Below, piece by piece: positions 1,025 through 54,737 of a stretch of 64,000 nt of DNA. The stretch is taken from assembly GCA_028712365.1 (NCBI GenBank), contig JAQTQE010000007.1, positions 1,026 to 65,025 on the forward strand, read 5' to 3'. The notes under the pieces were generated by a model that had not been told where the DNA came from, searched no databases, and saw only the letters and a program-made list of their open reading frames with translations. The stretch is from a bacterium (lineage in GTDB: Bacteria > CAYTYR01 > UBA6262). A program made the position numbers and the translations under genes. Position 1 is the first letter of the stretch, and each line of letters starts with the position of its first letter.

Positions 1025-2320
1025 TTATTTGATAGTTACTTGCGGATAAGCCTGTTTTACGCGTTGGCCAAGCGTGGTGATCAATCCAGCCAGATCATAT
1101 TTCCCGTTCAGGTATTCATTGACCAGCTGCCCGACCATCTGATTGATCTGGTAATCATCGCCGGAAATAGCGCTGGAATCAATATACTTCACCTGGTCGG
1201 CAAAATACTGATAGTGGTTCTGGCCATTAATAACAGGAGAAGACATAGCGCTTTTTATCTTATCTACCACGGTTTTATCGGACATAAAGTCACCAGTCTT
1301 CTTGGCATAAGCTTCCATATAGGCTTTGTCCTGGGTCAGCATTTGAATGAATTTCCAGGCCAGTTCTTTCTTTTTGCTGTTTTTGTAAATACCCATCCAG
1401 GTACCACCCCAGAAGAACGGGCTCGGAGGAGCAGTTACTGCCCAGTCACCTTTGGAATCAGACTGTTCGGAAAGGACAAAGAAAAGTCCCCAGGTCGGCC
1501 AGCCATAGACAAATACGGTTGCTTCATCGGGTTTGGAATTCATAGCAGAGAAGAACGGACCGGACCAGTCGCTGATCTTGGCGTCATAGTCATTATCACG
1601 GATCGCCTTTATTATCTTGAAATACTCGATCATCTGGGGATCAATGGAAAACTCATTTTTATCATTGATCCATGGAATCTTCCTGGCAGAATAGAACGGG
1701 CGATAAATTGTTTCTCCTGTGCCAGCAAACATTTTAACCTTTCCTTTACTCTTAGCTTTCAGAGCCGCCGCGGTACGCATGACCGCGTCCCAACTGGAAA
1801 AGTATTGCCCGATCTTTGCCGGGTCATCTGTACCAAAATATTTCCTGGCCACACTCCGGCGATAGAACCAGCCTCCGGGAGTCGCTTGCCAGGAAAGAGC
1901 TCTCAAAACACCACCCTTGTCTGTGCCCATTTGAACCACATAGGGATATGAATCCTTGGTTTTGGCGTTATAGGGAGCTTTGTTCAAATCCTCCCAGTAA
2001 CCGCCATCCAGGAATTGTTTTACCCAGGCTGCCTCACCGACAAAAACATCAGGAACTCCCTTGCCTGTTTTTAAAAGAGGCAGGATCTTGGCCTGGTATT
2101 GTTCAGTGGGAATGATCTGCAGGTCAACTTTTACATTGTACTTCTTCTCAAAGTCAGCCACAATACCCTGGCTTTTGAATTCAGAATTATAAGTTATAAT
2201 AGAGAGATTATTTGAGTCAGCACATCCGGCCAAGAAAGCAGCCAGGAAGATAACGATCAGCAGTAAGCCATTCTTTTGTTGCCTCCTAGCCTTAGCTAAT
2301 TTTCCTTTAAACCCAGTCAC
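1025..2320 (-). CDS. ABC transporter extracellular solute-binding lipoprotein (family 1, sugar-binding).
   Basis: The ORF is full of SBP-like sequence. The hydrophobic lipoprotein signal ...LLLIVIFLAAFLAGC lies well downstream of the first ATG. The likely start is the GTG at 2320, preceded by AAGGGG. Confidence 0.75.
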   Translation of the reverse strand: MTGFKGKLAKARRQQKNGLLLIVIFLAAFLAGCADSNNLSIITYNSEFKSQGIVADFEKKYNVKVDLQIIPTEQYQAKILPLLKTGKGVPDVFVGEAAWVKQFLDGGYWEDLNKAPYNAKTKDSYPYVVQMGTDKGGVLRALSWQATPGGWFYRRSVARKYFGTDDPAKIGQYFSSWDAVMRTAAALKAKSKGKVKMFAGTGETIYRPFYSARKIPWINDKNEFSIDPQMIEYFKIIKAIRDNDYDAKISDWSGPFFSAMNSKPDEATVFVYGWPTWGLFFVLSEQSDSKGDWAVTAPPSPFFWGGTWMGIYKNSKKKELAWKFIQMLTQDKAYMEAYAKKTGDFMSDKTVVDKIKSAMSSPVINGQNHYQYFADQVKYIDSSAISGDDYQINQMVGQLVNEYLNGKYDLAGLITTLGQRVKQAYPQVTIK

Positions 2321-2357: not shown

Positions 2358-3050
2358 TTATTCACTAAAGTACCTGCTTTTTTCAGCGCCGATAGTTGAG
2401 TCGGTCTTATGCCCCGGAAAGATCCTGGTTGACGGCGGCAGGTTGAAGAGCAGGTATTTAATGCTGCTATCAAGAGCTTCCTTGCTACCTCCCGGAAGAT
2501 CTGTTCTGCCCATACCACAGTTGAATAAAGTATCTCCGGTAAAAGCTAACCCCTCACTAACTAAGGTAATGCCTCCCGGGGTATGTCCCGGAGTACAGAC
2601 AACAGTCAACGTCTGTCCTCCTACCGGGATCTTCTCCCCGTCGGTTAAAAAACGGTCGGCGGTTATCTCATACAGGATCGATGCGTCATTACTATGGATC
2701 AGGACTTCTGCCTTCGTAGCTTTTTTTACTTCAGACGCGGCCTTGGTATGATCGCCATGCCCATGAGTAAGGATGATCTTCTTCACCTTTAATTTGTTTT
2801 CCTTGGCCAGGGAAATAATCTTTTCCGCTTCACCGCCGGGATCTATCACTACAGCGTCAAGAGTTTTCGGGTCATAGGCAATGTAGCAGTTGGATTTAAA
2901 ACGCGCCACCGGAATATTCAGGACAGTTAGCGGCAGCCCCTCGAACTTGTGGTATGAATTTGGATCAACTTTTTCTTGTTCAACCGAGCAACCAGTTAAA
3001 AATAACAGCCCTAAGATCATTAGAAGCCAAGACATTCTCATTGTTCTCAT
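2358..3050 (-). CDS. MBL-fold metallo-hydrolase lipoprotein.
   Basis: It has the HGHGDH zinc-binding motif (LTHGHGDHT) and a C-terminal D/H pattern. The lipoprotein signal is MRTMRMSWLLMILGLLFLTGC. Confidence 0.8.
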   Translation of the reverse strand: MRTMRMSWLLMILGLLFLTGCSVEQEKVDPNSYHKFEGLPLTVLNIPVARFKSNCYIAYDPKTLDAVVIDPGGEAEKIISLAKENKLKVKKIILTHGHGDHTKAASEVKKATKAEVLIHSNDASILYEITADRFLTDGEKIPVGGQTLTVVCTPGHTPGGITLVSEGLAFTGDTLFNCGMGRTDLPGGSKEALDSSIKYLLFNLPPSTRIFPGHKTDSTIGAEKSRYFSE

Positions 3051-3103
3051 TTACAATCTCCCGTTAGTTCTTTCTCCTAAATAAGCCATTCTCAGGCTCA
3101 ATA

Positions 3104-4264
3104 TTAAGGATTAGTTTCGTTGTCTTCCGTATCTTTTTCCGGTTCTTCATTTTCTGATTCGTCTTTTTGTTCAGCCGTAGTTTCAGTTGATTTTGAGCTG
3201 TCTATTTTTTCCTTAATACCCTTAAAAGTCTTGTCTAAAACAATTTTTACTTCATTTTGCGGAAGATTCTGCCACTGGCCGCCTCTGATCAGCATCTCAG
3301 ATGTATCCATGTCATAAAAATCTATTATGAAATATTTTAAAATACTAGAACTGCTGATCTGATAATAATCGTAACAAAAAACAGCCACCAGCTTGGGCAG
3401 ATTGATCTCTTCATTTGAGACAATACCGGGCCGAACCTGGATCACCGCGTTCTTTACATCATCAAAAGACAAGATTTTATTCGCCTCTGTCACCACTACT
3501 TTATTCTTGCCGAGAAATTCTTTTATTGCGCTGCTCTTAAGAGCAAAATTCACATTTTGAGGCAGATTACCAGAGTTATATAGCACTTTAAACGGATTAA
3601 TAGTACTTTGTACCAGCCCAATGACCGTACCTTGCGAATTCAACAAAGGGCTGCCGCTATTGCCTGGTTGGACTTCTACTGATATTTGCAATTGGAGCGG
3701 ATCATCTTTCAATCCGACCGTTGAGCTGATCAAGCCCTTATTTAAACGCGCGTTATTCCCCAGCAAGGTGCTCAAGGGAAATCCTATCGAATATACCTCT
3801 TGTCCCATTTTACAATCATCTGTAAAATACATCGGCAAAGGTTTTACTTTTTCTTGTAATGATCCAATTATCTTTAATAAAGCTATATCCTTTTTTTCAT
3901 CCTGGTCGATCAAGTCAGCTTCATACCTGATACTATTCACCCAGACACTGGCTTTCTTATCTTTCCCGATAACATGCGCGGCGGTAAGAAAATATCCCTC
4001 CTCCGTTATAATAAAGCCTGTACCTTGCGAGGCTATTTGGCCATCTTCAGCAACTTCATGTACTCTAAATTTAAGTTTCTTCAACTGGGCTTTTACTTTG
4101 GAGAATAATTTTATTGGGTCTTTTTCCTTTTTTGGCTTGATCAGGTAAACTTCGCGGTACTTTTTTAAATCAGCGTCTTTCTTTACTTGGACAATAGGCA
4201 TAACACACCCGCATAATAACAATGAACAGATGAATAAAGCCAAGACCTTGTTAAAATTAGTCAT
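3104..4264 (-). CDS. Trypsin-like (S1/DegP-type) serine protease lipoprotein with an acidic C-terminal tail.
   Basis: The catalytic triad context is TAAHVIG, DIALLKI and GNSGSPL. No PDZ domain is present. The signal is LLLCGC. Confidence 0.75.
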   Translation of the reverse strand: MTNFNKVLALFICSLLLCGCVMPIVQVKKDADLKKYREVYLIKPKKEKDPIKLFSKVKAQLKKLKFRVHEVAEDGQIASQGTGFIITEEGYFLTAAHVIGKDKKASVWVNSIRYEADLIDQDEKKDIALLKIIGSLQEKVKPLPMYFTDDCKMGQEVYSIGFPLSTLLGNNARLNKGLISSTVGLKDDPLQLQISVEVQPGNSGSPLLNSQGTVIGLVQSTINPFKVLYNSGNLPQNVNFALKSSAIKEFLGKNKVVVTEANKILSFDDVKNAVIQVRPGIVSNEEINLPKLVAVFCYDYYQISSSSILKYFIIDFYDMDTSEMLIRGGQWQNLPQNEVKIVLDKTFKGIKEKIDSSKSTETTAEQKDESENEEPEKDTEDNETNP

Positions 4265-7348: not shown

Positions 7349-10300
7349 TTATTGCTTTTTCATGGTGATATAAATGTTCTTTTTATACTGGTTATTATCA
7401 GCGTCTGTCCAGGCAATAGTAACCTTACCGGTTTGATCAGCGATATAGGAGCCATGATCAACCATTACTGTGACAATATCTTCTTCTCCCGTAGTATCAC
7501 CGTGAACCGGCATGATGATAGTGATCCAGTCTTCATCCTCGCTCAGCGTCCAGGAGATCGTCTGGCCGCTGGCGCTTTTTATTTTAAAAGCCCCCGCCTG
7601 CACTAAAGGCCCTATGATCAGATGCTCACTGTCTGTCTCCAGCAACGCCGGAAGGCTTTTTTTGCTTTTAGGCAACTGGTTTGGAAACCTCACGGCATTC
7701 GGATCATCCAGGGTGACTGTAATGAATTTCTTCCCGGCGCTACCCGCGTCCACCACCATTACCGTATGCGTGGAAGCTGTGACCGCGCTCCAATCCACGG
7801 TCAAAGCTACGGGCTCCATCTCATTGACAGTGGTACCAGTGGCTGGAGTGATCGCTAACCAGGTAACCGGCCGTAATTGGCTGATCGACCAGTTCATAGC
7901 CGCGAATCCATTATTCTCGATATTTATCTTCCTGGCAGTTTCCGGTCTATTGATGACCACTTCGCTTGCCGCGATAAATAATTCCGGTTGTACCGGCACA
8001 GAAACAGTGATATCTTTCCGTCCGGCGCCAGTACCATTCTCGTCAACGGCCAGGAGCGTGATCGTCCCGGTATAGGTTTTCGTCGCGGTTAATTTAGTCC
8101 TGTCTAATGTCACCCGCAGGATAAAATCATCCAGGTCATCATACACATAAGCTTCTGGTGTCACTGCGGTCCAAGCTTCACTATTGGCATGATCACGGCA
8201 GTTCACGCTAAACCAATCATCGCTGATATATATTTTGTATTTTAAAATTTTCCCGCCATCATTGTCGAGATAGATATATCTTTCACTTTCATTATTCGAC
8301 CAATCCAGGGTTAAGGGATAGGCCACCAGTTTGGCCGGCGGGTCAGCAGCCAAGTTCTTGGAATCGGGATTGCGCGGGTTGGTCCCGGCTGCTACTTCTG
8401 CGCTGTCACTGACAGCGTCATCATCGCTATCCTCATCAGTTATACTTGTGCCATATCTTATTTCCTGTGCGAGGGCTAGCCCGTCACCGTCGATATCCTG
8501 GTCGACGCTGTTATAAATACCATCATGATCATGATCTAAAGGCACGGCCAGGGTCACCTTGGCCATATTGCCGCTGCCCTTGGTTTCTTTCTTAGCCAGG
8601 CCAATCCCGTTTTTTACATAAACGATAAAAACCCAGGGGTCATGAGGGCTAACTGATGAGTATAGAGTCGACCCGAAAGCGCCAAGTTTCGCGCATTGGG
8701 CCAGGAAATTAACTTGTTTATGTTTAGCTAAAGCTAGAATATATTTGTCACTGGTATTGTCATATTGGTCTAGCCAGTTATGCACGGCTGTCACACTGGT
8801 TAGTTCCTTCATACTTTTACTTATCAGCCGGCCGCTGTCAGGGTCAAAAGCCGCGGCTAAAACACAAGCCGGGGAACTGGCGTCAAAATCCCAGATGAGC
8901 GAATCATTCTTAGTGATCCTGGCAGATGACGCGTTCAGGTCAGATCCTGCTTCTACTTCAAACACTGGTTTTAGATAATTCAACGCATTATATCTATTCC
9001 GGTAATCGGTAATAGCCGGGCGGGCGCGGCGATTATAACCGCTGGTGCCGCCGGTATCCCATCTTACGTGATCTATCCAGTACTGGATATTGCCGTTACC
9101 AGTCCTGATCGGCCTGCTGGAAACAGAGAAAACCATTTTCATCTTTTCCAGATTAAGCTTGGCCAAGTGCGACCCATTGGCAGGATGTTTGTAACCATAC
9201 TCATCCTGCCAGGTATAGCTGTGACTGTCCCACAAAGCGCTGATCGGCACAGTGATCTCCTGCCAGGCTGTACTATTAGCGTTGAATTCACTGAAATAAC
9301 TTTCATCGAACCATATAAAAACAGCGTTTTCCAAGCCGCTCTCGTCTTCGAACTTCAGGAAAATATCTTGCTTCAGCGGCTCCCCGATCGGTGTCGCCGG
9401 AGTAGTAGTTTGCTGGATCTTTATCCAAAATTTCAAATCACCATTGGCAAATCTTGATAGATCAATAAAATCCCTGGTGCGGAAGAGCCCCCAACCCCCG
9501 CCATAATCCTTGCCCCAGATCTCTGTATATGTGCAGCGGTGACCTTCGGGTATAATGTTGCCGGCCCCGCTGCCGCCAGTATAAGCATATTCTTTAAAAT
9601 TACTGTAATTTAACCTGCTGCCTTCCTGAAGGCTGATATAGTCAGCCTGGGAATTGATCTTACCATAACCTGTCCCTTGCGCCGGCAAGCCCCAGGTGAA
9701 AAAGTCCCAAGCCGGACTTCCGCCTTTTTGTTCACCGATCAAGCCCATATCGCTAAAGAAGACCAATGGGTTGATAGTCTTAGGATCCTGGCTGTTGAGC
9801 CCCCAAAACTCCTCTTCCATGCATCCGTCAGGCCACAAGTAAGTATTAGCCGGTACTCCGTTGTTTACCGGATAACCAGGATCATTATCATGAGTTTCCG
9901 GATTTTTGCCTTTCAGTTTCCACCATTCATCTACCCACTCAAAAGCGCAGCCACCAAGCAGGGAATCACTATTGTCTTGAGCCGACAACCGGCTTTGTAT
10001 TTCGCTCCATTGCCAACTGAGCCCTTCTTTCTGGCTCGCTACATCTTCAAATTCTTTTGCCGGGTCAGTATGGTAGCGCCACGCATCCACCCCATATTCA
10101 CTGAAATAATACGGCTTATTACACGTAACAGTATCGGCATACATCTCATAGAACGGGTCAAAGCTCTTGCCTTTATACAGGTTCAACCCTATCAGGTCAA
10201 TATTAGGCAACAAGCCAACACCGGCTTTATAATGTTCATATGAAGGATAATGCGGTTCACCCAAACACACGGCTACGGGATGATTGGGATCATTAGCTTT

Positions 10301-12959: not shown

Positions 12960-13083
12960 TTAAAATACTAATTTCTAATATCGAATTCCTAAACAAATCA
13001 AAAATACTAAATTCTAATTTCCTAAACGTTTAGAAATTTGACCTTGTTTAGGATTCAGATATTAGTGCTTAGAATTTGCTTTT
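12960..13083. repeat. AT-rich palindromic intergenic repeat, family B, core (G)TTTAGGATT(C)AGATATTAG with CCTAAA(T) arms.
   Basis: ...TAATTTCCTAAACGTTTAGAAATTTGACCTTGTTTAGGATTCAGATATTAGTGCTTAGAATTTG... It lies between murI and queD. Confidence 0.55.
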
Positions 13084-15583: not shown

Positions 15584-15600
15584 TTTTGCCAAGGGCAAAA
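15584..15600 (-). terminator. Probable rho-independent terminator in the ssrA 3' trailer.
   Basis: On the minus strand a perfect 7-bp hairpin (TTTTGCC CTT GGCAAAA) is followed by TTTAGAAC. Confidence 0.4.
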
Positions 15601-15743
15601 TATGGAGGTGCCGGGAATCCTCCTCACCCAGGCCGTATGCGCGGCCTTCCTTCGTCGCCGGCCAGTCTCGCTCGGACCAATGGCGCTCAACTTGGCTTCG
15701 ATTCCCTTAAGCAAGGGAGAAAATATGGAGGTGCCGGGAATCG
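15590..15743. repeat. About 30-bp direct repeat of the tmRNA 3' end. Copy 1 is at 15590-15619 and copy 2, the functional 3' end, is at 15712-15743. The repeats flank a GC-rich 92-bp stretch.
   Basis: AAGGG(C/AG)AAAATATGGAGGTGCCGGGAATC occurs twice. Only copy 2 continues into the T-arm (GAACCCGG). Confidence 0.7.
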
Positions 15744-16075
15744 AACCCGGGTCCCAAAATACGGTGTCGAGAACTTCTACAGGTTTAGTCTAGTAATTGA
15801 TTTCGCTGCTTCTGGCTCCACTAGATAGGATACAAAGGCAGCTATCCTTACTGATCTCACTTGACTCGCTAAGGAGTAACTCGTCAAGCCAGCCTACAGT
15901 TTTTGTACCTCTACCGCCCGTAGGCAGAGCAGGTAAAGATACTACGCCTTAACAGGCGTATGCGTACTGCGTGTTATAGTTAGCAGTTATAATTTGCTAG
16001 GTATTTAACGGCGACCCAACCATGCCGACCTGCCATCCAAGACCCCAAATATTCCGGTCGAAACCTTTCACCCCC
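15726..16075 (-). ncRNA. ssrA: tmRNA (SsrA), standard one-piece form.
   Basis: The minus strand begins GGGGGUGAAAGGUUUCGACCGG... at the 5' end. It ends ...GGACCCGGGUUCGAUUCCCGGCACCUCCA with a tRNA-like T-arm and acceptor, and CCA is not encoded. The gene lies immediately downstream of smpB. Confidence 0.8.
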
Positions 16076-16077
16076 AT

Positions 16078-16122
16078 CTGAAATACAAATTCTAAATCCT
16101 AAATTCGAAATTCTAAACAAAG
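16078..16122. repeat. Short family B copy.
   Basis: GAAATACAAATTCTAAATCCTAAATTCGAAATTCTAAACAAAG lies between the ssrA 5' end and the smpB stop. Confidence 0.4.
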
Positions 16123-16694: not shown

Positions 16695-16781
16695 GGACGA
16701 GTGGCGGAATTGGCATACGCGTAGCGCTCAGGACGCTATGGTCGTTAGACCTTAAGGGTTCAACTCCCTTCTCGTCCACCA
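16695..16781 (+). tRNA. tRNA-Leu (anticodon CAG), type II with a long variable arm. CCA is encoded.
   Basis: GGACGAGTGGCGGAATTGGCATACGCGTAGCGCTCAGGACGCTA...GGTTCAACTCCCTTCTCGTCCACCA. The D-arm is near-identical to E. coli tRNA-Leu. The anticodon loop is CUCAGGA. Confidence 0.85.
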
Positions 16782-23773: not shown

Positions 23774-23796
23774 TTCTTCACCCCCTTGCTGTTATT

Positions 23797-23895
23797 TGGG
23801 TATTAGGTTAGGAAATAAGTTTGGTTTAAGGTCTCTGGGTGTTAGGCTCCAAACCACAAACCTCAGACTTACTTCCATACCTACTTCTACAACTA
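23797..23895. repeat. Intergenic palindromic repeat, family A, core TACTTCCATACCTACTTC[TC]ACAAC. Copy 1.
   Basis: It is an imperfect inverted repeat whose right arm reads ...CAGACTTACTTCCATACCTACTTCTACAAC. It lies immediately 3' of tolR. Confidence 0.6.
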
Positions 23896-31224: not shown

Positions 31225-31365
31225 ATATCACCTTTAAAATTTCTAAATCCTAAGCCCTAAATCCTAAACAAATTCCAAGCCCTAAATTCAAATTTTCAAA
31301 ATACCGCGACATTTGAATTTTGAACATTTGAAATTGTTTAGAGTTTAGATATTAGGATTTCGGAT
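31225..31365. repeat. Family B palindromic repeat, the longest copy.
   Basis: ...CTAAATCCTAAGCCCTAAATCCTAAACAAATTCCAAGCCCTAAATTCAAATTTTCAAAA ... TTTGAATTTTGAACATTTGAAATTGTTTAGAGTTTAGATATTAGGATTTCGGATTTAAG. It lies between uvrA and the response regulator. Confidence 0.6.
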
Positions 31366-32145
31366 TTAAGCCTTCCCTATCAGTTCTTCGATCTTTTTCA
31401 GTAACTGGTCCGGTTCAAAGGGCTTGGTCATATACGCGTCAGCCCCTAATTGCTGTCCCAAATTGCGGGATTCCTCAGCGCTACGGGCCGTTAACATGAC
31501 GATCGGTATCTTCTTATAATTATTATCGAATTTAAGCATCCGGCATACTTTAAATCCATCTATCACCGGCAAGACCAGGTCCAGGAGGATCAAGTTGGGA
31601 TTGACCTTGTGTACCAACTCTAAACCAGCTTTGCCGTCGTGAGCCATAAATACGCTGTAGCCATTGGCTTCCAGCCTGATTTTCAGCATCCTGGCAATAG
31701 GCACCTCATCATCCACCACTACGATCTTTTTACGATTATCAGTCTCCGCCGGCGCCTGCTTGGCCTGGAACTCAGCCAGTAACTGCCGGGTCATGTACAC
31801 AATAATATCCGCGGCCGCCGGTTTTTTAATATATTTGGTGACGCCCAGGGTCATCGCTTCCAATAAAGCGTCTCTTTCAGTTTCATCGGATAATATCAGG
31901 ATGGGCCAACCTTTGGTGCGTTCATTCGTTTTTAGCCGCCGGACAAACTCCACCATGCTGACGATCAGTATCTTATCATCGATCACTACCGCGTCAAAAG
32001 TGCGCTCAGCGGTCATGACCTCATAAAGGCCTCTCTTGCCGTCACCGCACAAAGTTACCTCAAAATTATCCACGCTGAACTTGGTTTTAAGTTCTTCCCC
32101 CAGCTCATAATTATCACTAATGATCAAAACACTTTTATCCGCCAT
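31366..32145 (-). CDS. Response regulator with two receiver domains. The first is atypical and the second canonical.
   Basis: REC2 shows VVVDDE...ILLDLVLPVIDGF...TKPF. REC1 lacks the usual acidic pair (IISDN). Confidence 0.7.
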   Translation of the reverse strand: MADKSVLIISDNYELGEELKTKFSVDNFEVTLCGDGKRGLYEVMTAERTFDAVVIDDKILIVSMVEFVRRLKTNERTKGWPILILSDETERDALLEAMTLGVTKYIKKPAAADIIVYMTRQLLAEFQAKQAPAETDNRKKIVVVDDEVPIARMLKIRLEANGYSVFMAHDGKAGLELVHKVNPNLILLDLVLPVIDGFKVCRMLKFDNNYKKIPIVMLTARSAEESRNLGQQLGADAYMTKPFEPDQLLKKIEELIGKA

Positions 32146-32159
32146 TGCTCAACCTCTGG

Positions 32160-32278
32160 AACTTAGTCTATGGGTATAAGTTGTGGAAGTAGGTATAGAA
32201 CTAAGTCTGAAGTTTTTGGGTCAAAACCAATTCCCTTAGACTTTAGACCAAACTTACTTCCAAAACTTTCAACTTACT
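32160..32278. repeat. Family A palindromic repeat, copy 2. It is a full hairpin element.
   Basis: The left arm GTATAAGTTGTGGAAGTAGGTATAGAACTAAGTCT pairs with the right arm AGACTTTAGACCAAACTTACTTCCAAAACTTTCAACTTAC. It lies between the two response-regulator genes. Confidence 0.65.
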
Positions 32279-36665: not shown

Positions 36666-36687
36666 ATATTCCTTGTTGAGGAGCTGT

Positions 36688-36797
36688 TATTAGGTATAAG
36701 TTTTGGAAGTAAGTTTAGTCATAGGTCTTAGGAAGTTTGGCTTAAAACCTTAAAACCTACTTCCTACTTCCATACCTACTTCCACAACCTTCACCCT
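36688..36797. repeat. Family A palindromic repeat, copy 3.
   Basis: The left arm GGTATAAGTTTTGGAAGTAAGTTTAGTCATAGGTCTTAGGAAGT pairs with the right arm ACCTACTTCCTACTTCCATACCTACTTCCACAACC. It lies between the hydrolase and panC. Confidence 0.65.
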
Positions 36798-36798
36798 A

Positions 36799-37689
36799 TT
36801 ATAAGTACTTATCAAAAAAGGCGATGACCTTTTCTTCATACTCTCTTGGCCACAAGCCATGCGCCTCCAAATGATCCGCCTCTGGCGCTATCCACAACTG
36901 CCTCGGCTCACCCGCCGCTTTAAACAAATCATCCTGATTCACCGGCGGTATCCGCACATCATTGGCGCCGCCAATAATAAAGACTGCCCGCGGGGAGATA
37001 TGGCCAATATATTTTGTGGCATCAGCTTTCCTGGCGCTAAATCCTGCCCGCAGTTCTGCGAACCATATAGCCGGCGGTACAAATGGATACTTCGGCAGGT
37101 TATAAAACAACTTGGCAAATTTGGTAATTGTCTTTTCAAAAGAAGCAAAACCACTGTCTGCCACTATTGCTTTTATCCGCGGATCATTAGCCGCCCCAAT
37201 TATGGCCACATTAGCTCCCATGGAGCAGCCAAGCACGCCTATCTTGTTTTGGTCAATATCCTTGCGAGTCATTAAGTAATTCACCGCGCCAGCCAGGTCC
37301 CTGGTCTCGTTATAGCCCAAGGTACATTTCCCCTTAGTCTGCCCATGAGCCCGGAAATCAAACACTAGGACATTATATTTATGGTGGTGCAGCATTTCCG
37401 CGAAAGTCAGAATATCGCTCTTATTGGTGCCATAGCCATGCAGAACTATAACCGTAGGCTTAGTGTTGTCACCCGGGATAAAAAAACCAATGGTTTGGAT
37501 GCCATCGGTAGAAGAAAAGGTCACGTCTTCATAAGACATATTCAATTCTGAAGGTTTAGTGTCCAGATCATACCGTGGCGGGGTTAAGATAAGCCGCGAA
37601 GCCCCCCACCCCCATATTATCGTCACAGCAACGATAATCACTACTATAGAAGTCCAAACAGGAACATGTATGTTAAAATAGTTAGTCAT
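36799..37689 (-). CDS. Alpha/beta-hydrolase (dienelactone-hydrolase/peptidase S9-like) with an N-terminal membrane anchor.
   Basis: It has an N-terminal TM. The nucleophile elbow is GCSMGA. The Ser-Asp-His order is GGANDVRIP...ADHLEAH. Confidence 0.75.
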   Translation of the reverse strand: MTNYFNIHVPVWTSIVVIIVAVTIIWGWGASRLILTPPRYDLDTKPSELNMSYEDVTFSSTDGIQTIGFFIPGDNTKPTVIVLHGYGTNKSDILTFAEMLHHHKYNVLVFDFRAHGQTKGKCTLGYNETRDLAGAVNYLMTRKDIDQNKIGVLGCSMGANVAIIGAANDPRIKAIVADSGFASFEKTITKFAKLFYNLPKYPFVPPAIWFAELRAGFSARKADATKYIGHISPRAVFIIGGANDVRIPPVNQDDLFKAAGEPRQLWIAPEADHLEAHGLWPREYEEKVIAFFDKYL

Positions 37690-38162
37690 ATAATTAATAC
37701 TGATTACTCGTATTATAAAATGTTTTACCGGGGTCCTGTCTCGGGTTGATTTTACAGGGACGTTTGCTCCACCCAGCGGTTACGCTGCACTTTAGTTCAG
37801 CTTTTGCTCGTCCCGATAAAGAACATCGGGACACCGTGCTCGCAAAAGCATCAATAACCCTGGCAAAAATCAAACCCTCGCCACCCCCAGCTACTGTGAT
37901 AATAATAACAGCAACCATATAAATCAGGGAACTCGTCATTATTTTGAGCGAGCTTGTCGGTTTCAGCCAAAGCACGCTTGCAGACAACGAGGGCATCTGT
38001 TGGTTGCTGGATGCCGAGGCATGTTTGAGCCCTGTGGGCGAGTTGCGAGGCACCGAGTTGTCAAAAGACCTTTGGCGCAGGATCCGCCAAGGGCGGATAT
38101 GGAAACCGACACTGGAGTGAACAAATAGTGACAGTTACCTGATATACGGAGAAGTTATTTTA

Positions 38163-38960
38163 TCAATATGAATGTTTTTTATCCGGGAATTTGCCGGATT
38201 CCACTTCCTGTTTATATTGTTTGAACGCCTTTAGCATTATCTTCCTAACATCCACGTACTGCTTCACGAATTTCGGTTTAAAATCCGGGAACAGTCCCAG
38301 CATATCCGGTGTCACCAGCACTTGCCCGTCGCAATACTTGCCGGCTCCGCAACTGATAGTTGGTATAGCCAGGCTTGCAGTGATCTCCTTAGCCAGCTGC
38401 CAAGGCACACTTTCCAGCACTATGGAAAAGACGCCTGCTTCCTGTAATAATAAGGCATCTTGTTTTAATCTTTCGGCTTGGACATTCTCCCGTCCCTGGA
38501 CTTTGTATCCGCCCATTTTATGCACTGCCTGGGGAGTTAGTCCGATATGCCCCATTACCGGGATATCAGCGTCCAGCATCGCCTTGATCGTCTTGATCAT
38601 TTCCCGCCCACCCTCGATCTTCACCGCTTCAGCCCCGCCTTCTTTCAGGAACCGGCCGGCATTGCGCACTGCCTCGCTGGGCTTGATCTGGTAGGAAAGA
38701 TACGGCATATCAGCGACTATCAAGGCATTCTTATTGCCTCTTTTCACTGCCTTGACATGATGCAGCATTTCTTCAATAGTCACCGGCAGGGTTGTCTCAT
38801 AGCCAAGCACTACCATAGCCAGGGTATCCCCCACCAATAAAATATCAATACCAGCCTCATTCATCAGCCTGGCGGTGGGATAATCATAGCAGGTAAGCAC
38901 AGCTATTTTTTGTTTAGCTTGTTTTTTAGTTAATAATGAAGTTGTTGTTACTTTTCCCAT
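38163..38960 (-). CDS. panB: 3-methyl-2-oxobutanoate hydroxymethyltransferase.
   Basis: KIAVLTCYDYPTA...LLVGDTLAMVVLGYETT...GHIGLTPQ motifs are present. Confidence 0.9.
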   Translation of the reverse strand: MGKVTTTSLLTKKQAKQKIAVLTCYDYPTARLMNEAGIDILLVGDTLAMVVLGYETTLPVTIEEMLHHVKAVKRGNKNALIVADMPYLSYQIKPSEAVRNAGRFLKEGGAEAVKIEGGREMIKTIKAMLDADIPVMGHIGLTPQAVHKMGGYKVQGRENVQAERLKQDALLLQEAGVFSIVLESVPWQLAKEITASLAIPTISCGAGKYCDGQVLVTPDMLGLFPDFKPKFVKQYVDVRKIMLKAFKQYKQEVESGKFPDKKHSY

Positions 38961-40542: not shown

Positions 40543-40544
40543 TT

Positions 40545-40656
40545 AAACCCCTCTTGAAATACAATTTTGAATTTTGAGTGTTGAGTTTTGAATTATGGAA
40601 AAAGATTTTACCTTAACTTAAAACTTAAAACTCAAAACTTATAACTGCTTTTAAAA
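40545..40656. repeat. AT-rich palindromic repeat, a TTTTGAA variant.
   Basis: The inverted pair is TTTTGAATTTTGAGTGTTGAGTTTTGAA and TTAAAACTTAAAACTCAAAACTTATAA. It lies between dapL and the small membrane ORF. Confidence 0.45.
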
Positions 40657-40908
40657 CTACTTTTTAAAAACATAGATGATCTCACCAACCAGGATCAAGA
40701 GAACGACCGCGGCAATGATATTGGTGGTCAGGCTATGGGCTACCATTAAAGACCAAAACAGCCAGAACAATAATCCCATGCTGACAATTACTATGACTAT
40801 AGTCGCCGCCAGGTTTGCCGGATCCCAACCCTCCTCAACTTCTGGCGCCGTAATAACGGTTTGATTCTCAATCCTTGGTTTCTCGTCTCCGGCCATATAA
40901 CCCTCCAA
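40657..40908 (-). CDS. Small hypothetical membrane protein (83 aa).
   Basis: It has an acidic N-terminus and two TM helices. It is flanked on both sides by intergenic palindromic repeats. Confidence 0.35.
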   Translation of the reverse strand: MEGYMAGDEKPRIENQTVITAPEVEEGWDPANLAATIVIVIVSMGLLFWLFWSLMVAHSLTTNIIAAVVLLILVGEIIYVFKK

Positions 40909-41047
40909 ATATTAACACAAATTCTAAGCACTAATATCTAAACCTTAAACAATTTCAAAACTCCAAATCCTAATTTCTAAACGTTTTACATTTTAAGATA
41001 GATTTTGTCTAGGATTTCGATATTCGAATTTAGGATTTGCTCCAAAA
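40909..41047. repeat. Family B palindromic repeat copy.
   Basis: ...CCAAATCCTAATTTCTAAACGTTTTAC...GTCTAGGATTTCGATATTCGAATTTAGGATTTG. It lies between the small membrane ORF and the HEAT gene. Confidence 0.55.
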
Positions 41048-52744: not shown

Positions 52745-52790
52745 CACCAACCTAAGACCTACTTCTATACTTACTTCTACACCTTTCACC
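52745..52790. repeat. Family A repeat, half-element.
   Basis: CCTAAGACCTACTTCTATACTTACTTCTACACC sits between argG and argH. Only one arm is recognisable. Confidence 0.45.
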
Positions 52791-52815
52791 CTGTGACTGT
52801 TCTTAACATTGGCTC

Positions 52816-54027: not shown

Positions 54028-54101
54028 ATTATACTCCTTGAATGTAAGGGTCAATGAAAAGGATCACAAAAGAGGGTCATAAAAGAGGATCACTGTTTTA
54101 A

Positions 54102-54185
54102 TGCCGCGGAAGGGATTTGAACCCCCAAGTCCTTGCGGACACATGGTCCTAAGCCATGCGTGTCTGCCAATTCCACCACCGCGGC
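54102..54185 (-). tRNA. tRNA-Leu (anticodon UAG), type II.
   Basis: The reverse complement reads GCCGCGGTGGTGGAATTGGCAGACACGCATGGCTTAGGACCATG...GGTTCAAATCCCTTCCGCGGCA. The anticodon loop is CUUAGGA. CCA is not encoded. Confidence 0.8.
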
Positions 54186-54456
54186 GTATTTTGCTGAAAG
54201 CTGAATGCTGAAAGCTAAAAGCCGAAGAGAAATGTTTTTGGCATCCAGCATTTAGCATTTAGCATTTAGCCAAAATTTACTTCGTAAATTTTGGGCCGTA
54301 GAGGACTCGAACCTCCAACCTTATCCTTAAGAGGGATCTGCTCTACCATTGAGCTAACGGCCCATATATAAACTGCTTGATGCTGGAAGCTGAAAGCTTG
54401 ATGCAAAATCTTTTAGCATCCAGCTTTTAGCATTTAGCGGTCTTTAGTAAATTAAG
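54186..54456. repeat. tRNA-spacer heptamer-based hairpins.
   Basis: GCTGAAAGCTGAATGCTGAAAGCTAAAAGC pairs with GCATCCAGCATTTAGCATTTAGCATTTAGC at 54186-54291. A similar hairpin lies at 54375-54447. Confidence 0.45.
54292..54363 (-). tRNA. tRNA-Lys (anticodon CUU), probable.
   Basis: The reverse complement reads GGGCCGTTAGCTCAATGGTAGAGCAGATCCCTCTTAAGGATAAGGTTGGAGGTTCGAGTCCTCTACGGCCCA. The anticodon loop is CUCUUAA, with one mismatched stem pair at 27-43. Confidence 0.65.
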
Positions 54457-54529
54457 CGCGCCTGCTGGGACTTGAACCCGGACATCTAGCTCCGGAGGCT
54501 AGCGCTCTATCCAATTGAGCTACAGGCGC
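54457..54529 (-). tRNA. tRNA-Arg (anticodon CCG).
   Basis: The reverse complement reads GCGCCTGTAGCTCAATTGGATAGAGCGCTAGCCTCCGGAGCTAGATGTCCGGGTTCAAGTCCCAGCAGGCGCG. The anticodon loop is CUCCGGA. Confidence 0.8.
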
Positions 54530-54533
54530 GTAT

Positions 54534-54643
54534 CAACACCCCAAACCCCGCTCAAAGGGGCTCCCGCCCCTATTGCGCTCGCTCGGCTGATCCCGATAAA
54601 TCGGGATCAATACACCGGCTCGCTATTACCCCTTGGGGTGTTG
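54534..54643. other. GC-rich structured element of about 110 nt between the HD-GYP gene and tRNA-Arg.
   Basis: The outer 11-bp stem CAACACCCCAA...TTGGGGTGTTG encloses internal hairpins CCCCGCTCAAAGGGG and GATCCCGATAAATCGGGATC. GC is about 60 % against about 43 % locally. Confidence 0.3.
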
Positions 54644-54737
54644 CCGGGAAACAATAATATACCTTAGTTATGGAAGAAAAACAGCGTCCATAGCTATTTT
54701 GTTACTTATACCATAAATGGGGATTTTTGGCAAGTAT

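Follow-up and report, generated by a model that had tools for sequence, protein, structure and literature searches.

Organisation of the panB-hydrolase gap

The window analysed here is a 64,000-nucleotide stretch of contig JAQTQE010000007.1 (assembly GCA_028712365.1) from a bacterium of the UBA6262 lineage, which is classed under Elusimicrobiota; all positions refer to this window unless another locus is named. Between 34 and 41 kb it carries a run of minus-strand genes, comprising a DapL-like aminotransferase gene, folK, panB, an alpha/beta-hydrolase gene, panC and nadB. A gap of 473 nt (37690-38162), the subject of this study, separates the stop of panB (38163) from the hydrolase ATG (37689). 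The gap comprises two imperfect palindromes, here termed modules A and B, that are joined by a linker and followed by a short tail (Table 1). Module A lies 20 nt from the panB stop and module B lies 35 nt from the hydrolase ATG. The gap is probably a mosaic of two non-coding, hairpin-forming elements (A, linker, B). These would belong to a family of dispersed intergenic repeats, not described before, that is found in an uncultured lineage resembling Elusimicrobiota.

The GC content of the gap was 47.6%, compared to 46.0% over the window and 46-47% in the flanks, with module A alone reaching 51%. The contrast of ~50% against ~43% given in the first-pass annotation, which had been made from the sequence alone, was overstated. 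That annotation had also described the gap as the only long one in the region. Four others of at least 500 nt were found in the window, at 2519-3103, 15599-16122 (tmRNA), 40543-41047 and 54055-54737 (tRNAs). Both hairpins that it quoted are present and form the apical part of module B. The whole gap folded better than chance, the z-score being -3.7 for the minus strand and -3.0 for the plus strand.

Table 1. Features of the panB-hydrolase gap and of the flanking region, in window coordinates
Feature	Position	Strand	Description
panB, upstream neighbour	38163-38960	-	Ketopantoate hydroxymethyltransferase; Pfam PF02548, E 1.5e-117
Outer extension of module A 5' arm	38143-38149	-	CCGTATA; from flank comparison and the fold of the extended element
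Module A	37924-38142		Dispersed palindromic repeat, 219 nt; minus-strand (gene-sense) reading 5' TCAGGTAACTGTCAC ... GACGAGTTCCCTGA 3'; branched rod of ~72 bp
Module A 5' terminal inverted repeat	38132-38142	-	TCAGGTAACTG; similarity between copies starts here
Module A 3' terminal inverted repeat	37924-37934	-	GAGTTCCCTGA (CAGTTCCCTGA in most other copies)
Linker between modules A and B	37891-37923	-	33 nt, TTTATATGGTTGCTGTTATTATTATCACAGTAG; least conserved part of the gap
Module B core	37725-37890		Second imperfect palindrome, 166 nt; CTGGGGGTGGCGAGGG ... GACAGGACCCCGGTAA; apical hairpin variable
Nested hairpins of the first-pass annotation	37800-37849		Apical part of module B; GCTTTTGC ... 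GTCCCGAT-loop-ATCGGGAC ... GCAAAAGC
Locus-specific tail	37690-37724	-	Module B to hydrolase ATG, outside the dispersed element; the L024 copy diverges directly after ...CCCCGGTAA
Spurious 119-aa open reading frame (ORF)	37694-38053	-	Contains an 81-aa sub-ORF at 37694-37939
alpha/beta-hydrolase gene, downstream neighbour	36799-37689	-	Pfam alpha/beta-hydrolase families
'S' palindromic repeat	36666-36798		Fills the hydrolase-panC spacer; tandem GGAAGTAG motifs in one arm, CTACTTCC in the other

Module A is dispersed at unrelated loci

A search with the hydrolase protein led to four contigs of metagenome-assembled genomes (MAGs), labelled Elusimicrobia, "bacterium" or "Clostridia". The contig with the most similar hydrolase (L002, 93% identical) has a homologous gap of 470 nt. 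In L003 (hydrolase 85% identical) the panB-hydrolase spacer is just 34 nt and the element is absent from the site; the 5' half of the window's gap, corresponding to module A, is instead found on the other side of the hydrolase gene, after rather than before it. In L004 (81% identical) the site is again a 470-nt gap, filled by an unrelated 119-aa 23S_rRNA_IVP gene (PF05635, E 1.6e-14) with AT-rich repeats flanking it.

Further copies were found by two routes. A 20-mer that was invariant in three copies was searched in a metagenome collection, and the open frame on the strand opposite to the 119-aa ORF was searched among proteins. The 20-mer returned seven real copies of module A; the other two of its nine matches (L005 and L009) lay inside coding sequence and were set aside as chance. 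The open frame matched five more tiny "proteins", all of which are in fact copies of the repeat and belong to no protein family. Module A is present at 13 or more unrelated intergenic loci of Elusimicrobiota-like MAGs and metagenomes, with copies 68-97% identical. Its neighbours include queF, a PBP, lexA/dinB, glycosyltransferases, aroB, leuA/leuC, LemA/DUF218, gatB and an HhH-GPD glycosylase, and its orientation relative to the adjoining genes (8 versus 5) showed no significant bias (p = 0.58). The MAG contig L021 carries two copies, one on either side of leuC, and L002 carries module A before the hydrolase gene and a degenerate copy, A', after it. The A-linker-B arrangement was found again at two other unrelated loci, with a full module B in L024 and a shortened one in L022. 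The 20-mer had no match in viral contigs, and no match to the element was found in plasmid and phage collections or, by blastn at word size 11, in 5,426 complete E. coli genomes.

Similarity between the copies begins and ends exactly at an 11-nt inverted repeat (TCAGG.../...CCTGA), the two ends of which, TCAGGTAACTG and TCAGGGAACTG (the 3' arm in reverse complement), agree in 10 of their 11 positions. Outside it, 8 of the 13 copies have a TYCCGTRTA-like extension of about 7 nt that can pair with an extension on the far side, at 37915-37923 (TTTATATGG). The terminal A...T of the element could equally belong to the palindrome rather than to a duplication. No conserved promoter or terminator was found in the repeated unit. 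At the lexA-dinB site, comparison of seven relatives gave no clean empty site, each lineage having a different filler.

The copies of module A differ in loop length by 1, 2, 5 or 19 nt, and some gain or lose entire hairpins at fixed points. An extra hairpin of ~50 nt nested within module A is common to L008 and L012. As L008 and the window represent one locus, their B modules being 99.6% identical, the extra hairpin is a strain-level difference. In L012, a 276-nt insert with its own 32-nt inverted ends is also nested in module A (1741-2016).

Two genes were seen to lie between two module A copies in the same orientation, namely the hydrolase gene in L002 and leuC in L021. In L003 the hydrolase gene lies between 17-nt direct repeats (AAGGTATAGCCTCACTG) at 782-798 and 1710-1726. 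Such repeats may mediate gene rearrangement.

Linker, module B and tail

Module B has a minimum free energy of -62.9 kcal/mol. It occurs at the orthologous site in L002 and L008, and beside a module A copy at the unrelated locus L024, where it is 97-98% identical outside a differing apical hairpin. The base of the inner stem is kept, while the apex differs in L024, where the hairpin is longer, and in L001. Shortened forms of module B are found in L001 and L022, the 'mini-B' of L022 joining the two arms directly, and in L012 a lone inverted arm of module B adjoins module A. In L006, L007, L012 and L021b, module A is followed not by B but by an alternative module, C.

The linker accompanies module A at several loci, with related linkers in L002, L011, L022 and L024, and contains short motifs resembling the arms of module A. 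Between the window and L002 it shows nine mismatches and a 3-nt indel. The tail differs between the two at 2 of 35 positions.

Conserved fold and compensatory changes

To define the fold, RNAalifold was applied to MAFFT alignments of the copies; the following counts refer to a 12-copy alignment termed A6. Module A folds into a nested, branched rod with 72 predicted pairs, and 97.2% of the cells are paired. Double-sided changes were observed at 15 pairs, compared to 3.9+-1.3 in shuffles (none of 500 reached 15) and 0-5 in slid registers, figures to be read with the caveats that the structure was derived from the same sequences, that the copies are interrelated and that the shuffle count given by the tool should not be taken as a probability. 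The divergent copy L021b swaps entire helices with pairing kept, GACAAC/GUUGUC becoming GUCCUUUUCGG/CCGAAAAGAC and UGCC/GGCA becoming UGGC/GCCA. The variable columns of module A are enriched at unpaired positions (Fisher p = 0.008).

Reading the element on the plus strand of the window gives ~41 G.U cells against ~5 A.C cells, and raw folding energies favour this strand by 5-17 kcal/mol. The shuffle z-scores are alike on both strands, at about -4 to -7 (approximately -4.5 on each strand for module A of the window). Since the dinucleotide-shuffle z-scores are equal, the difference in raw energy is compositional, and the assignment of a strand from raw folding energy was dropped.

Sequence constraint

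The conservation of the gap was assessed against its homologue in L002. Synonymous divergence (dS) of the neighbouring genes was 0.58 for panB, 0.61 for the hydrolase gene, 0.96 for panC and 0.95 for nadB, with non-synonymous divergence (dN) of 0.04-0.07 for the four. The nucleotide divergence (K) of modules A and B was 0.06 each, approximately ten times less than at the synonymous sites of the neighbours. By comparison, 5 of 16 nt differ in the stretch between the panB stop and module A, and the hydrolase-panC spacers were unalignable. The differences that were found lie largely outside the predicted helices: 11 of 14 in module A fall in unpaired columns, and all six substitutions in the module B core and tail are at unpaired positions of the predicted fold.

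Module A of the window is 96% identical to the L023 copy, which is at an unrelated locus, and 95% identical to its orthologue in L002. Copies at unrelated loci resemble one another as closely as orthologues do (93-96%). As the window and L002 have identical junctions, the insertion is most simply ancestral. An ancestral insertion of such low divergence implies either purifying selection or homogenisation between copies.

Interpretation of the gap

The gap is best read as part of a new family of structured repeats resembling MITEs (transposable elements of the miniature inverted-repeat type), ERIC and REPINs. The elements would have spread as non-autonomous mobile DNA or via recombination, with the enzyme encoded elsewhere. 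At the present locus, modules A and B would be co-transcribed within the string folK-panB-[A-B]-hydrolase-panC-nadB, and the transcript would fold into long RNA hairpins. By analogy with ERIC and Correia elements, these hairpins could set RNA processing or stability and so decouple the expression of the upstream and downstream genes. Correia elements act via RNase III. ERIC is co-transcribed and changes the stability of the flanking mRNA through RNase E (PMC2229807, PMC10969869). Given that the element has no conserved promoter or terminator and lies so close to both neighbours, co-transcription with the pan genes, the RNA hairpin acting in cis, would be the most likely mode by this analogy. 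The strong conservation would reflect selection on the hairpin or homogenisation between copies or, less probably, a recent transfer bounded exactly by the ends of the element.

Several observations weigh against this interpretation. The element is not AT-rich as typical MITEs are (module A 51% GC against 46% for the window). No direct repeat indicative of a target-site duplication was shared by the flanks at any of the 13 insertion sites, and no transposase, RAYT or TnpB gene adjoined any copy in the ~300 kb of loci examined. The copy density is low: nhmmer and covariance-model scans covering the 64 kb of the window and ~100 kb from related MAGs detected no additional copies of A or B. Lastly, divergence far under the synonymous rate, combined with compensatory changes, is not expected of neutrally decaying selfish DNA and fits a functional RNA at least equally well.

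A further reading, which is possible but unlikely, is that A-B is a functional structured nucleic acid under purifying selection, either a 219-nt branched-rod RNA or a single-stranded DNA, and not merely selfish. Across genomes and unrelated loci, copies of A-B share 93-98% identity. Such an element could be a domesticated repeat that punctuates operons via targeted RNase processing or stabilisation. Alternatively, it could be a scaffold or recognition RNA for a putative Elusimicrobiota mobile-element enzyme.

It is rather doubtful that module A, alone or with B, represents not mobile junk but a gene present in several copies, whose product would be a structured RNA acting in trans, or the scaffold or guide RNA of a putative enzyme. 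The 15 compensatory pairs and 97% pairing agree with such a gene, as do the K of 0.06 against dS of 0.58-0.96, the 93-96% identity of copies irrespective of locus, the excess of G.U over A.C cells on the plus strand and the optional hairpin insertions at fixed positions, which are seen in many large RNAs. However, the repeated unit has its exact end at the terminal helix base and has neither a conserved promoter nor a conserved terminator, it stands in either orientation to the flanking genes, and it is wedged tightly within operon-like gene strings. Presence/absence and truncation variants (L001, L022 and A' in L002), shuffle z-scores that are equal on both strands and the lack of a match to any Rfam family also argue against an independent RNA gene.

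A decayed pseudogene or neutral spacer, with the similarity to L002 arising from recent recombinational exchange between lineages, is improbable. The high identity is limited to one segment, as in a short transferred tract, but it falls at the element's own ends and not in the homologous coding DNA on either side, an unusual pattern for homologous exchange, and the sequence is dispersed at other loci. No frame of the gap has protein similarity. The possibility that the gap is a degraded remnant of the 23S_rRNA_IVP four-helix-bundle gene found at this site in L004 was considered and rejected, as that gene has no sequence similarity to the gap. In the first-pass annotation a decayed pseudogene was the outcome expected if Rfam matches, covariation and conservation were all lacking. 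Rfam gave nothing, yet both compensatory pairs and conservation were found.

Coding and known-RNA readings

The first-pass annotation had judged that 37690-38162 holds no convincing gene, and had doubted the 119-aa minus-strand ORF. Both judgements were borne out. The ORF is present, but Pfam assigned no family to any of the four ORFs of the gap and the coding tests failed. Among 5.8 billion proteins the 119-aa ORF gave a single partial match, of 33 residues within its module A part. A protein homologue for one frame, the other outcome raised in that annotation, did not emerge, as no frame of the gap yields a protein family. The ~95-aa Cys-rich peptide that it had proposed joins minus-strand frames 0 and 1; the true open stretch is 69 codons, without a listed start codon. 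The suggestion of a structured non-coding RNA or a small ORF therefore held in part: the gap is structured and non-coding, its 5' half having a fold conserved across 12 copies with 15 compensatory pairs, but it is neither a unique RNA gene nor a small ORF.

The 81-aa sub-ORF starts just inside the 3' arm of module A (ATG at 37939-37937). Between the window and L002, the proportion of differing synonymous sites (pS) was 0.08 and the ratio of non-synonymous to synonymous differences (pN/pS) was 0.58, compared to a pS of ~0.40-0.54 and a pN/pS of ~0.1 for the real neighbouring genes, indicating a constraint on nucleotides. A small protein, perhaps a membrane peptide or type I toxin encoded by the 81-aa or 119-aa ORF, or the product of the Cys-rich frame, is most unlikely. 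The window, L002 and L008 all have the 81-aa ORF intact, its sole indel relative to L002 is in frame, its stop lies 4 nt before the hydrolase ATG and its N-terminus is hydrophobic. Nevertheless, this hydrophobic segment is the least conserved part, a stop follows ...AFVPI in L001, most of the frame is deleted in L022, and in other copies the same ATG opens onto peptides of 7-64 aa that are unrelated. The Cys-rich peptide arises only by joining two frames, and the only database match, that of the 119-aa ORF, is limited to the repeat. The loop-length differences among module A copies break every frame on both strands. The gene-caller ORFs on the gap are spurious.

Rfam 15 gave no match to the gap, either at the gathering threshold (whole window) or at E<=10 with lax filters (37600-38260). 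The weak resemblances to RNase P RNA mentioned in the first-pass annotation were unsupported: neither RNaseP_bact_a nor RNaseP_bact_b matched, and the element is absent from the site in L003 and L004 and multi-copy elsewhere. Covariance models for 6S RNA, cobalamin and other riboswitches, the pan motif, group I/II introns, HEARO and OLE likewise failed to match either strand at E<=10. There is a negligible chance that the gap acts as a riboswitch or cis-regulatory leader for the hydrolase gene or the pan operon, or is a housekeeping RNA such as RNase P, since the highly structured element, although inside a pantothenate-gene cluster and followed by a conserved locus-specific 35-nt tail ahead of the hydrolase ATG, recurs beside 13 unrelated gene sets in both orientations with no consistent class of downstream gene, is missing from the panB-hydrolase site in L003 and L004, and has no Rfam match.

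Other repeats and genes in the window and its relatives

The 'S' palindromic repeat (Table 1) has further copies in the window at 23788-23893, 32172-32271 and 52749-52792, and in L011 at 142-247 and 2044-2152. These repeats occupy spacers that separate minus-strand genes reading in the same direction. A third repeat family, which is AT-rich (TTTAGAATTTAGATATTAGG...), was found in the window at 12960-13079, 16087-16121, 31233-31367 and 40919-41040, one copy abutting the tmRNA gene, and in L004 at 3531-3575 and 3955-4000. In L004, inverted copies of this AT-rich repeat lie either side of the 119-aa 23S_rRNA_IVP four-helix-bundle gene at the panB-hydrolase site, which suggests that the gene is carried as a cassette.

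Each related MAG was found to have its own palindrome in the same orthologous spacers (L015 9445-10000, L001 ~1000-1250, L014 9900-10000 and L017 ~9920-10000). The spacer motif of UBA6262 is ATCAGG/CCTGAT, and two other MAGs have CAGCGTA/CGCTGA; ATCAGG is also the terminal motif of module A. The spacers of these genomes are routinely filled by such lineage-specific palindromes, which may bear on how polycistronic expression is organised.

With respect to the other long gaps of the window, Rfam identified a tmRNA gene at 15723-16075 (minus strand, 182 bits) and four tRNA genes (16695-16778, plus strand; 54102-54529, minus strand). The tmRNA and tRNA genes explain two of the window's other long ORF-free stretches. 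The remaining two, 2519-3103 and 40543-41047, are ORF-poor, with 45% and 36% GC, respectively, and the second has a copy of the AT-rich repeat and an 83-aa ORF.

Between lexA and dinB, several relatives share a conserved 81-82-aa gene without a Pfam family (MIETINERIRVGAIFTGD...VWHLLKV), at ~1830-2075 (minus strand) in L011, ~9573-9820 in L015, 9674-9919 in L017 and 6564-6812 in L019. Its product is presumably a small protein of the SOS regulon.

Significance and comparison with known repeat systems

For annotation, the analysis removes a false lead, as the gap contains no RNase P RNA, riboswitch or Cys-rich peptide. It also delimits a family of structured intergenic repeats that had not been described before, from an uncultured phylum about which little is known. 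For this family there are now exact boundaries, a covariance model and a modular grammar made up of A, linker, B and the alternative C. The element is of an ordinary kind. What is unusual is the combination of low copy number, compensatory evolution and an ancestral insertion that diverges tenfold below the synonymous rate. If the conservation reflects selection and not homogenisation, the elements are useful inside operons and offer a tractable case of repeat domestication. A literature search on MITEs in Elusimicrobia found nothing relevant.

REP, BIME and REPIN sequences, which are mobilised by RAYT, and the pneumococcal BOX elements are mosaics of palindromic modules that leave no target duplication, with a hairpin that is apparently kept by selection. 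REP units are 20-40 nt and REPINs ~100 nt, they occur in hundreds of copies, and the RAYT gene is flanked by REPs. The element described here similarly combines modules (A+B, A+C or A alone). In contrast to REPINs, module A is a single 219-nt branched structure and not a REP doublet, and no RAYT gene was found in the ~300 kb examined.

The features of MITEs, and the effects of ERIC and Correia elements on mRNA in cis, have been described, with very stable hairpin transcripts among the defining features of small non-autonomous repeats (PMC10969869, PMC2229807). Like the MITEs Correia/NEMIS, RUP and QMITE2, which are dispersed non-coding sequences of <500 bp with terminal inverted repeats, stable stem-loop transcripts and presence/absence polymorphism (PMC10969869), the present elements are short (module A 219 nt, module B core 166 nt) and non-coding, with terminal inverted repeats within the known range of ~4-30 bp. 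Their copies are dispersed, and orthologous sites are filled, empty or differently filled (L003 and L004). Unlike MITEs, they showed no flanking direct repeats at the 13 sites compared and are not AT-rich, no parent insertion sequence or transposase was found beside the copies in the ~300 kb examined, and they are conserved far beyond neutral expectation.

YPAL, the RU-2 of Yersinia, is a 168-bp intergenic palindromic repeat that, like the present element, is not AT-rich and lacks TA termini (PMC2229807). Its insertion sites are regions of dyad symmetry or lie close to them (PMC2229807). YPAL differs in being abundant and in generating target duplications of 3-26 bp, none of which were seen here, and its host phylum is unrelated.

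ERIC/IRU sequences share with the present element imperfect palindromes that lie in operon spacers (transcribed in ERIC/IRU and presumably so here) in either orientation, carry chance ORFs and are conserved between species, as well as size variants that arise from internal insertions at fixed sites. ERIC is 127 bp, with 7-bp terminal inverted repeats and TA ends, generates a target-site duplication and is present at 30-700 copies in Enterobacteria and Vibrio, whereas the present element comprises 219 nt and a 166-nt partner, forms a branched rod, has a low copy density and showed no duplication. By architecture, the nearest analogues of the element are ERIC/IRU and YPAL, with the mosaic REP/BIME and BOX repeats also close.

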